Assembly: GCF_058153355.1 (NCBI RefSeq)
Contig: NZ_CM177019.1
Length of the DNA stretch: 64,000 bases
Strand: one strand, 5' to 3'
Shown here piece after piece: positions 41,979 to 44,054 of the stretch. The translations under genes were made by a program, and so were the position numbers. How positions within the stretch are numbered: the stretch's first letter is position 1; each line of letters begins with the position of its first letter. Under the pieces are notes generated by a model that searched no databases, was not told where the DNA came from, and worked only from the letters and a program-made list of their open reading frames with translations.

Positions 41979-42368
41979 TTACAGTAGTGAGGGCTGGTAC
42001 TGGCGGTATTTCAGCCGTCGCATCCGGCGAATGGCCTTGTAAACCGTATTGAAAGTGACACCATAACGGGTGGTCAGTTCGCTGACGTTGCGACCGTTAA
42101 AATCATTCCAGATACGCAAATCCCGAATCAGCGAGTCCAGAACCTGACCGCGTGGAATGTAGACCTGACCGCCGCCCAGATGCTTACAGATAGCCACAAC
42201 AATCTCCAGTGAATGGGCAGGATCAACACCCAGCCGGGACAATTCCCCGCGCAGTAAATCGTTCAGCTCCGCCAGCAGTGCCGGAAAGCGTGACGTATCC
42301 TCGGCGGGATTGTCAAGATGTGCCAGGATGGTGTCATCCTGCAAATCACCAAATAAATCTTCCGTCAT
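41979..42368 (-). CDS. mor: Middle-gene transcription activator Mor
   Basis: 129 aa; Mor/C family; follows gemA with a 4-bp overlap. Confidence 0.85.
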   Translation of the reverse strand: MTEDLFGDLQDDTILAHLDNPAEDTSRFPALLAELNDLLRGELSRLGVDPAHSLEIVVAICKHLGGGQVYIPRGQVLDSLIRDLRIWNDFNGRNVSELTTRYGVTFNTVYKAIRRMRRLKYRQYQPSLL

Positions 42369-42916
42369 TGTGCCATCCTCCGTGTCTTTCTGGCATGGGC
42401 ATAAGCCGCCGTCATGGCATCATAGCCGCGCAGTTCACGCCCGGACGGACTGACCGGCAACGGAAGCTCGTGACGGGAAAAGGCTTCACGAATACAGCGG
42501 ATGTGCCACTGCTTGAGTGTTTCGAGGACTGTCAGCAGCGTGTCGCCATGACACCACGCCAGTGTGGAAACGCCCTGTCCGCCGTTGCGTTTCGCGGTCA
42601 GGCGCTGAACATATTTATCCAGCGCCACATCACCGCCATCGGTAATAAAACCGTCTTCTGCCATCTGCTGCCAGACTTTGTATACCTTCTCGCGGGGCGT
42701 GACATGCCCCTTAAAGCGGCGACGTGGATGTTTATTCTGCTTCTTAAAGCCGCGTTCTTTCATGGCATCAATCACCTGTTCCAGTTGCGTAACCGTCAGC
42801 TCGCGGCAACTGATTTTGCCCGTTTTCTGCATCAGAAAGGCGCGGTAAGTATCGTCGCCGAGTTGTAGCTCCCGACGGGCGACATGGATTAATTTAATCA
42901 GGGATGTGCGATTCAT
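42365..42916 (-). CDS. gemA: GemA host-gene-expression modulator
   Basis: 183 aa directly upstream of mor. Confidence 0.75.
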   Translation of the reverse strand: MNRTSLIKLIHVARRELQLGDDTYRAFLMQKTGKISCRELTVTQLEQVIDAMKERGFKKQNKHPRRRFKGHVTPREKVYKVWQQMAEDGFITDGGDVALDKYVQRLTAKRNGGQGVSTLAWCHGDTLLTVLETLKQWHIRCIREAFSRHELPLPVSPSGRELRGYDAMTAAYAHARKTRRMAQ

Positions 42917-43190
42917 GATCGTACCTCCGGAAAGAGGCGGTGCTGCAACACCGCCTGAATTTACACATCAATCAGAGAGGATTTTATGGAAAATAATGTA
43001 CAACCTTATGATGTTGCAGGTTATGCGATTGCATCAGCACTGGTGCGCCTTCTGGTGAAGAAGGCGATCATCACCGCAGAAGAGGGCCAAGCCATTTTCA
43101 GCTCTTCAGCAGAGATTTTAAAAGATGCGCCTGCAATAAGAACAAGCCGCCGCGAAAACATGCAACTGTCAAAGATCATGGAAGACATTA

Positions 43191-43493
43191 TCAGTTCGTT
43201 AGACCCAGATGCTGACGGATCTCAAAAGCCTCAAACACATGAGCGTCAGTAACAATATCCTGGTCTGATAACCCCAGCCTGCGGCGGATGTACTCCTCGC
43301 GGGCTGTTTCATTTTGCAGTGCCACTACTGTTTCCAGACGATTCATTTCGCGGTTGATAATGTCACGGACTTCTCTGGCGGTGAGATTATGCTTAATACC
43401 ATATTCAACGATAGCGCGAACACGTTCCAGCATCCCTTTTTCAGCCATGACGTTATCAATATTAAGGGGAGTAAATTTATCTTCATTGTTCAT
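43191..43493 (-). CDS. Mu semi-essential early-region protein
   Basis: 100 aa; order. Confidence 0.45.
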   Translation of the reverse strand: MNNEDKFTPLNIDNVMAEKGMLERVRAIVEYGIKHNLTAREVRDIINREMNRLETVVALQNETAREEYIRRRLGLSDQDIVTDAHVFEAFEIRQHLGLTN

Positions 43494-43813
43494 TTTGCGG
43501 CCCTCAGAATAAATTCAGGATAAAATTTCAGACTCATTTGCCGTAACACATCCAGTGCAGCAACGGCTGCTGATTTATCGTTGCCATCAGCAATAGCGCG
43601 GAGATTTTCAATAATCCAGTGAGGACTCAGTGACTCAGCAACAATACCGAGTCGGTACGCCATGACCTCATCAATTGCACGGTTATAAGACGGGGCGTAT
43701 ACCGCCGCCACAAAGTTACCGATCACATCTTCAGGAAAACCCGCCGCCGTCAACAACGCTGTCAGTTCCTCGGATTTTGTAAATACGCCATTATTCATTC
43801 TGTTCACCTTCAC
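43490..43813 (-). CDS. Mu semi-essential early-region protein
   Basis: 107 aa. Confidence 0.45.
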   Translation of the reverse strand: MKVNRMNNGVFTKSEELTALLTAAGFPEDVIGNFVAAVYAPSYNRAIDEVMAYRLGIVAESLSPHWIIENLRAIADGNDKSAAVAALDVLRQMSLKFYPEFILRAAK

Positions 43814-44054
43814 AATTCATGCACGCCGTGTCATCGCCCATATCGCAGTGGTTGCATTTCTGCCCGCCACAATGGGGACACTCTTTCAGATATTCAGGGG
43901 ATTCATTACCGCAGGTCGGGCATTCCTGTTTCACCGTGGTGAATTTCCCCAGCCACGAATACGATGTTTCATTGTTTTCCATTGTTTGCCTCCGCCTGCT
44001 CCAGTGCCATAACTGGTGCGTCAGAACAGTCAAGAATGAGATAGCGCAGTACAT
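43791..44054 (-). CDS. Mu early-region Cys-rich small protein
   Basis: 87 aa; CPTCG...CPHCGGQKCNHC...CMNC zinc-ribbon-like cysteines. Confidence 0.45.
   Translation of the reverse strand: MYCAISFLTVLTHQLWHWSRRRQTMENNETSYSWLGKFTTVKQECPTCGNESPEYLKECPHCGGQKCNHCDMGDDTACMNCEGEQNE

Follow-up and report, generated by a model that had tools for sequence, protein, structure and literature searches.

Mu gene 15, a probable reverse-strand protein-coding gene with a predicted terminator of its own, in the gap upstream of gemA in a Mu-like prophage

Layout of the interval between gemA and gene 14

The window analysed here is a stretch of 64,000 nucleotides that contains a Mu-like prophage, the early operon of which lies on the minus strand. 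The following features were placed in and around the interval upstream of gemA, with positions given in the coordinates of the window:

41979..42368, minus strand (early operon): mor
42365..42916, minus strand: gemA, matching the Pfam GemA model (E 1.5e-30), with its ATG at 42916..42914
42924..42928, minus strand: Shine-Dalgarno sequence of gemA, GGAGG, read directly; a ribosome-binding site is annotated at the equivalent place in AF083977.1
42936..42955, no strand assigned: hairpin A, GGCGGTG-ctgcaa-CACCGCC, followed on the early strand by TCTTTCC (42935..42929) and then by the gemA Shine-Dalgarno sequence
42967..43189, no strand assigned: segment of 223 bp missing from the natural deletion variants vB_YpM_3 and vB_YpM_23, with breakpoints from pairwise alignment that agree with the annotation
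42975..42981, plus strand: Shine-Dalgarno sequence of the gp15 homolog, GAGAGGA, read directly
42986..43252, plus strand (opposite to the early operon): gp15 homolog, a small helical protein of 88 amino acids, assigned by phrog_8747, synteny and coding pattern
43021..43188, minus strand: counterpart of Mu_54 (55 amino acids), annotated in AF083977.1 and probably a spurious shadow open reading frame (ORF)
43191..43493, minus strand: gene-14 (E15) homolog, an early gene convergent with gp15, matching phrog_6075 (E 2.7e-54)
43275..43316, plus strand: hairpin B, a predicted intrinsic terminator with a stem at 43275..43306 followed by TTTCATTTTG, inside the reading frame of the gene-14 homolog
43490..43813, minus strand: extra gene of the SfMu type

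The gap between gemA and the gene-14 homolog occupies 42917..43190, and its length of 274 bp, to which the initial annotation had drawn attention, was confirmed. The neighbouring early genes are packed tightly, as described there, with stops and starts that overlap or abut. The gap was also called unusual, but it is no peculiarity of this window, as it recurs in reference Mu, in SfMu and in many E. coli and Salmonella prophages. Reading of the sequence further bore out the plus-strand ORF at 42986..43252 (88 amino acids, beginning with MENNVQPYDV), the GAGAGGA 4 nt ahead of its ATG, and the hairpin GGCGGTG-ctgcaa-CACCGCC, with arms at 42936..42942 and 42949..42955. At the nucleotide level, 1601 bp of the window (42300..43900) have 95% identity with SfMu and, in the parts shared with Mu, 97% identity with the latter; over 451 bp (42850..43300), the identity with several E. 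coli prophages is 99.6%.

The ORF in the gap is Mu gene 15, which has been catalogued since the 2002 Mu annotation and is therefore already known. It matches phrog_8747 over residues 1-88 of 88 (E 1.3e-60), and tblastn comparison gave 100% identity to SfMu gp16 (YP_009152202.1) and 95.5% to Mu gp15. The RefSeq record of Mu (NC_000929.1) lists gp15/Mup15 (NP_050619.1) at complement 7896..8162, between gene 14 and gemA. The exact Mu protein corresponds to the UniProt entry GP15_BPMU and occurs on at least 1000 contigs, and the exact protein of the window occurs on 877 contigs, in a cluster named GP15_BPMU. SfMu and E. coli prophages have an equivalent layout, on the reverse strand between gene 14 and gemA, and PGAP calls the gene in the latter. 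Mu gp15, SfMu gp16 and phrog_8747 thus represent the same gene of an uncharacterised family, equal in length, strand and position and without any difference of substance. The gene diverges from gemA, with its ATG ~70 bp from the gemA start, and at its other end runs for 62 nt into the 3' end of the gene-14 homolog, which is convergent with it.

The records differ in how they treat this interval. An old record of the Mu left end carries a 'putative F-134' ORF on the gp15 strand, the current GenBank entry AF083977.1 no longer lists gp15 and instead places Mu_54 (55 amino acids, early strand) in the gap, and in the two records of phage D108 (GQ357916 and NC_013594) a gap of 376 bp is left empty, with the gp15 homolog unannotated. 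As databases already place a gene in the gap, the initial observation was accurate but ordinary. Literature searches retrieved no transcriptome, ribosome-profiling, proteomic or phenotype data for the locus, and gp15 is nowhere discussed there.

With the 223-bp deletion listed above, gp15 loses its Shine-Dalgarno sequence, its start codon and the codons 1-68. Both phages that carry it, vB_YpM_3 and vB_YpM_23, form plaques and lysogenise (PMC10434027), and gp15 is dispensable because these viable phages lack it.

Frame conservation and the terminator on the plus strand

The initial annotation leaned towards a spurious ORF within a regulatory region and proposed conservation of the reading frame among Mu-like phages as a check. 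This comparison was carried out with nine alleles over a 120-nt core with a mean nucleotide identity of 51%. The gp15 frame is free of stops in all nine alleles, while every other frame contains stops in most of them. The BLOSUM score per site reaches 1.97 in the gp15 frame versus at most 0.75 in any other frame, and the differences at the three codon positions of the gp15 frame are 0.45, 0.36 and 0.65, so that the frame is conserved with substitutions of the coding type. The allele of the E. coli prophage KFu019 retains 88 codons without any indel at 65.5% nucleotide and 50.6% gp15 amino-acid identity. In addition, a Shine-Dalgarno sequence of the AGGA/GAGG type, followed at equal spacing by ATG, is present in all ten loci tabulated, as well as in L024, L026 and L031. 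An ORF that stays open in alleles so diverged is not a mere product of chance.

Remote homologs extend this comparison. The DNA in the D108 gap is unrelated to that of the window, yet it holds an ORF of 119 amino acids at the equivalent place and in the equivalent orientation. The profile phrog_32893 is matched by the D108 ORF (E 5e-7) and by gp15 (E 2e-4); a direct BLASTP comparison of gp15 with the D108 ORF was not significant, and the link came from the PHROG profiles and an exhaustive HMM profile search. The latter covered 1.84 billion representatives and returned 13 clusters of 60-119 amino acids, of which all seven that were looked up on contigs occupy the equivalent spot. One member, P0013, matches all three PHROGs concerned (8747, 32893 and 38610). 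Word-indexed protein searches with gp15 yielded near-identical sequences only, and single-protein scans added just three further close loci; amino-acid identity between the gp15 subfamilies drops to about 20%, which marks purifying selection as moderate, not strong. All family members that were placed in genomes have reverse-strand orientation and lie 66-81 bp away from the ATG of gemA; with the exception of the truncated L021 allele, they extend 28-98 nt into the 3' end of the preceding early gene. Gene-14 homologs lie upstream of the gp15-family genes in all alleles.

The D108-type and other alleles (phrog_38610, phrog_32893; P0005-P0015) resemble gp15 in slot, orientation, Shine-Dalgarno sequence, convergent overlap, plus-strand terminator and N-terminal motif, but differ from it in sequence (just 15-37% identity), in length (60-119 amino acids) and in their tails. 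By profile similarity, phrog_8747, phrog_32893 and phrog_38610 form one family with a common helical-hairpin core. Taken as a whole, the comparison indicates that gp15 is very probably a real protein-coding gene. The spurious ORF that the initial annotation favoured is at odds with a frame kept in 9 of 9 diverged alleles and with remote homologs at the equivalent position, while the antisense gene that it offered as the alternative proved correct: the ORF is Mu gp15, with a frame conserved across diverged alleles.

Downstream of gp15, the stem of hairpin B comprises 13 pairs and lies 22 nt past the gp15 stop codon of the window. In the other alleles, a homologous hairpin stands at a variable distance from the stop, which tracks the length of the protein tail. 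Across eight alleles, 94% of cells are paired, a share that falls to 34-54% on sliding of the partners; compensatory changes are seen at five pairs, and none of 500 shuffles reaches the covariation score. The plus-strand fold is the more stable one in all eight alleles (in the window -21.3 kcal/mol with z -3.05, versus -17.9 kcal/mol with z -1.71 on the minus strand), because many G-U pairs of the plus strand would be A-C mismatches on the minus strand. T-rich tails are likewise found on the plus strand only. The gene-14 residues encoded at this site vary (AREEYIRRRLG versus AHNNIVCRELG) while the pairing persists. For Mu, TransTermHP predicts a terminator at the equivalent site. Hairpin B is therefore predicted, with good likelihood, to terminate the gp15 transcript, and constitutes independent evidence for plus-strand transcription that would be stopped ahead of the early operon.

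A convergent transcript with an intrinsic terminator of its own and an overlap with the 3' end of an early gene is known from lambda, where the 77-nt non-coding oop RNA has these properties and acts against cII. The gp15 unit is similar in these three features and differs in encoding a conserved protein. By analogy, the main product of the locus could be a plus-strand antisense RNA ending at hairpin B, with the peptide being secondary. Such an RNA would pair with the early mRNA across gene 14/gemA, or its transcription would collide with that of the operon, and the effect would be to damp leaky gemA-mor expression in lysogens or to time the early-to-middle switch. The conserved, strand-specific terminator is what this reading would predict, as is the convergent gene-14 overlap of 28-98 nt in every allele but L021; gp15 also adjoins, on the upstream side, the operon of Mor, which activates middle transcription, and low-level transcription from Pe occurs in lysogens (PMC3820752). 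Conservation, however, acts at the protein level, as the DNA cannot be aligned between alleles while the N-terminal motif, the Shine-Dalgarno sequence and the ATG persist, and the deletion variants have no gross defect. An antisense RNA as the main product is accordingly considered unlikely, although antisense and protein functions could coexist.

The region upstream of gemA and the minus-strand frame

Of the 16 distinct Mu-like loci that were inspected, 13 contain hairpin A, and L032-L034 lack it. Five stems occur, namely GGCGGTG/CACCGCC, GCGGTG/CACCGC, GGCCACGCG/GCGCGGCC, CCGGCAGTG/CACAGCCGG and GGCGGC/GCCGCC, and the T-rich tail that follows on the early strand is TCTTTCC for the window; L009 has TCTTTTTT there, and L030 has TTTTTAAA. 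As RNA in a 46-nt context, hairpin A folds with -17.0 kcal/mol on the minus strand (z = -2.4) and with -15.2 kcal/mol on the plus strand; over the alleles, the folding energy favours the minus strand in six and the plus strand in four, without consistent asymmetry. The hairpin is kept where gp15 is deleted (vB_YpM_3) or absent (L029, L030), and the breakpoint of the Mu/D108 mosaic lies exactly at its 3' edge; for these two reasons, it is assigned to the gemA upstream region and not to gp15. The suggestion in the initial annotation of a structured RNA thus holds insofar as the hairpin is conserved, whereas its association with the ORF does not, as the structure goes with the gemA upstream region and persists without the ORF.

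On the early-strand RNA, just 5' of the gemA ribosome-binding site, hairpin A is tentatively best read as a leaky terminator or attenuator, or as a structure for RNA stability, in gemA-mor expression. A terminator scan of the window did not flag it, its T tract being weak, and a function as an early-strand RNA element is given roughly even odds. A search of Rfam over the interval gave one match at chance level (E 0.12, 20.9 bits versus a gathering score of 75), in another part of that interval. Mor binds a dyad in the promoter Pm. A role of hairpin A as a Mor-binding dyad like that of Pm/t9.2 was considered and rejected, the sequences being unrelated (GCCGG-TTAA-CCGGC versus GGCGGTG-N6-CACCGCC).

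The record AF083977.1, citing PMID 9454718, annotates a 'semi-early promoter' at Mu 8151..8217, which corresponds to 42932..42998 of the window and spans hairpin A together with the start of gp15. Given this annotation, a regulatory element may overlap the 5' end of gp15. A consensus promoter scan detected no promoter for gp15 on the plus strand and no convincing sigma-70 match for the 'semi-early promoter' on the minus strand. Scanning with position weight matrices likewise gave no conserved, convincing site for the 'semi-early promoter', and for gp15 it returned only weak and ambiguous candidates of two classes: those within gemA codons 6-9 (TTTAAT/ATTAAT), and those that place a -35 element in the loop of the hairpin, from which the mRNA would start too late to include the Shine-Dalgarno sequence.

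The gap could also be read as essentially non-coding regulatory DNA, consisting of a semi-early promoter for gemA-mor and the hairpin, in which the plus-strand ORF is incidental. The extent of the annotated promoter (42932..42998), which covers both the hairpin and the gp15 start, would fit this view, as would the dispensability of the segment and the description of lysogens as expressing the gem operon constitutively (PMC3820752, citing Paolozzi and Ghelardini 1992). A promoter, however, needs about 70 bp and not 274, and it leaves frame conservation, protein homology across unrelated DNA and the kept Shine-Dalgarno sequence and ATG unexplained. Moreover, the deletion variants are viable although they have lost the upstream part of the promoter (42967..42998), and the minus-strand scan lacks a convincing sigma-70 match. 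This makes an incidental ORF quite improbable; the promoter and the 5' end of gp15 can coexist and are not mutually exclusive.

Least of all is it to be expected that the real gene is Mu_54, translationally coupled to gene 14, with the 88-amino-acid plus-strand ORF as its shadow. Mu_54 is annotated in the curated Mu record, its start lies 2 nt past the gene-14 stop (TGATAATG), in keeping with the tight packing of the operon, and in the KFu019 allele (65% identical) a minus-strand ORF is open as well (61 amino acids, TGATG overlap). Its wobble positions, however, coincide with those of gp15, and as a consequence third-codon-position bias cannot tell the strands apart and a long open shadow frame is expected, in which a Tyr, His or Gln codon behind one that ends in a pyrimidine suffices for a stop. 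The decision between strands was instead based on multi-allele stop counts and BLOSUM scores. The Mu_54 frame is broken by stops in 7 of 9 alleles, and the longest open stretch of the minus strand in L009, L011, L014 and L021 measures 37-51 codons in gaps of 72-95 codons, so that none spans the gap. Over identical bases, the BLOSUM sum is 123 for gp15 versus 77 for Mu_54. Mu_54 has no significant match among the PHROGs, and its cluster holds three members, whereas gp15 proteins are each found on about 1000 contigs. In addition, Mu_54 would leave the conserved plus-strand Shine-Dalgarno sequence, ATG and terminator unexplained. From these comparisons, Mu_54 is most likely a non-conserved shadow ORF of gp15.

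A real gene 15 on the reverse strand with a terminator of its own, together with a hairpin that belongs to gemA, is thus the preferred reading of the locus, with a probability of roughly 0.8.

The gp15 protein and its possible role

The AlphaFold2 model of gp15 has a mean pLDDT of 68, with values of 82-89 over residues 11-40, and contains helices at residues 7-25, 31-45 and 61-72 as well as a disordered tail. The core motif of the family, [YF]D.A[GA][YF]..(10)..L[VI].KG[VI]I[TD]..[ED][AG], coincides with the N-terminal helical hairpin. As modelled, gp15 is a small alpha-helical protein in which the N-terminal helical hairpin represents the conserved part and the disordered tail the variable part. 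A linked-dimer AlphaFold model was uninformative (pLDDT 47) and was set aside. Foldseek comparison with the PDB gave no match at E <= 0.001, and a profile search of PDB sequences gave matches at chance level only. No match to gp15 at threshold was obtained with Pfam, NCBIfam or PADLOC, and none of 15 family members matched PADLOC at E <= 1.

SHOCT domains constitute the family PF09851. Several gp15-family members show weak SHOCT-like matches (PF20612 and PF22746 were tested), with a best E value of 0.0014 and a best score of 18.6 bits for member P0006 against PF22746, below the cut-off of 27; the gp15 of the window has no match to the Pfam SHOCT models. The likeness to SHOCT and SHOCT-like domains lies in a short hairpin of helix-turn-helix shape with an L..L[VI].KG.IT..E motif. 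In contrast, the gp15 family scores below the Pfam gathering thresholds, and the motif of gp15 is N-terminal in a stand-alone protein.

The site itself was surveyed in further E. coli prophages, sampled with gemA as the anchor. A gp15-family gene is present in L031, a reverse-strand DUF2513 gene in L033, and no reverse-strand gene in L029, L030, L032 and L034; a contig scan with gemA as the query added one irrelevant distant locus. This survey shows a variable cargo slot upstream of gemA. Traits of a moron, an accessory prophage gene with autonomous transcription, are found here in the form of a terminator of its own (the predicted hairpin B), dispensability and replaceable cargo at the site. 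On account of its orientation against the early promoter Pe, its own terminator, its dispensability and the variable slot, gp15 is most likely a moron-like accessory gene, as far as the genomic arrangement allows such a reading.

The gene forms a compact reverse cassette, with the Shine-Dalgarno sequence and ATG near gemA, an ORF of 88 codons with a variable, disordered tail at the overlap with gene 14, and a predicted terminator within gene 14 that would keep reverse transcription out of the early operon. Under the moron-like interpretation, it would be switched on in the prophage, while Pe is repressed, and switched off by convergent early transcription during lytic growth, and its product might be an accessory protein that binds another protein. 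Expression in lysogens is deduced from the orientation of gp15 towards the strong promoter Pe, and preferential expression in that state can be proposed only tentatively.

A comparable arrangement is found in the Mu-like Pseudomonas phage Fc02 with olg1 and olg2, which the lysogen transcribes and which give it superinfection exclusion (PMC9936078). Like gp15, these are small ORFs of a transposable phage that run opposite to the lytic early operon and overlap an early gene. They adjoin the repressor gene and share its transcript, whereas gp15 is located 8 kb inside the early operon and has its own predicted terminator. No sequence relationship exists between them, and the likeness is one of gene arrangement alone.

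To what was known of gene 15, this analysis adds a comparative case for the coding of gp15 and against Mu_54, a family of three PHROGs that includes the D108 gene, a conserved, predicted plus-strand terminator embedded in gene 14, and the separation of hairpin A from gp15. With regard to curation, AF083977.1 put Mu_54 in the place of gp15 without comparative support, and the D108 records miss the gp15 homolog; with regard to family definition, PHROGs 8747, 32893 and 38610 are united. These findings overturn nothing in the current understanding. For the biology of the phage, they indicate that Mu, a paradigm, carries a conserved and uncharacterised gene that faces its early operon and has its predicted terminator within the opposing gene. 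As gp15 lies directly upstream of the operon for the early-to-middle switch, it offers a cheap and well-defined target for strand-specific transcriptomics and knockouts. More speculatively, and with little likelihood assigned to it, the gp15 family and the DUF2513 gene that replaces it in some prophages could occupy a dedicated reverse-strand cargo slot switched by convergent transcription, the product or antisense RNA of which would have a modulating effect on the host or safeguard the early-to-middle transition. If this were true, possible roles would include a contribution to the 'gem/lig' lysogenic-conversion phenotypes that were historically ascribed to this region, phage exclusion and the damping of leaky mor expression, and the early genes would have evolved built-in reverse-strand terminators that insulate the operon.

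Homologs and substitutes of gp15 upstream of gemA

The site upstream of gemA that carries gp15 in Mu (the 88-aa product of gene 15, read against the early operon) is left without annotation in the D108 records, where it appears as a 376-bp gap. This gap contains a 119-aa reverse-strand ORF that occurs in both L004 (GQ357916; 1687..2046, + in locus coordinates) and NC_013594. The ORF matches phrog_38610 with an E value of 8e-83 and is remotely homologous to Mu gp15. In LR595867, a related record, the 119-aa ORF is annotated.

In the Mu-like prophage of E. coli MIN10 (L033), a reverse-strand DUF2513 gene (996..1412, +) takes the place of gp15 at this site. Downstream of its 3' end, a + strand hairpin, GGCGGC-GACA-GCCGCC, is followed by ACTTTATCG and sits within the gene resembling SfMu gp14. 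The terminator scan of the window detected a + strand terminator-like site at 43557..43570, GCAGCAACGGCTGC followed by TGATTTATCG, within the window copy of the same gene, and this site is the match of the L033 hairpin.

Second reverse-strand genes, a transposase insertion and a plasmid-borne copy

In some Mu-like prophages there is a second reverse-strand gene between gemA and mor, encoding 111-142 aa, one of which is phrog_15648:
L009 2950..3378, +, second reverse-strand gene
L010 2981..3385, +, second reverse-strand gene
L014/L015 3052..3387, +, second reverse-strand gene

At L022, an IS256-family transposase (PF00872, 3236..4444) interrupts the 3' end of a gp15-family gene, which explains the aberrant C terminus of the protein P0007. 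E. coli 06-00048 has a Mu-like early region, gemA and mor included, on its 136-kb plasmid pCFSAN004178P_01 (L032) in addition to one on its chromosome; the plasmid copy lacks both hairpin A and a reverse-strand gene.

Hairpin A loop, an additional early gene and an early-region ORF

The loop of hairpin A, the inverted repeat assigned to the gemA upstream region, reads CTGCAA, GTGACA, GTTACA or TTGCAG (window 42943..42948 and homologous loops at other loci), and both of its strands therefore resemble the -35 hexamer (TTGACA) in most alleles.

An additional early gene and a further ORF of the early region are present in the window:
43490..43813, -, additional early gene, 102-107 aa, phrog_1988
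43791..44054, -, early-region ORF of 87 aa, phrog_5584 match

The former is present in SfMu (gp14) and many E. coli prophages and absent from Mu. Mu leaves 18% of the 1.6-kb query (window 42300..43900) uncovered, and most of this shortfall is due to the missing gene. The 87-aa ORF contains four CxxC motifs (CPTCG..CPHCG..CNHCD..CMNCE) and looks like a zinc ribbon.
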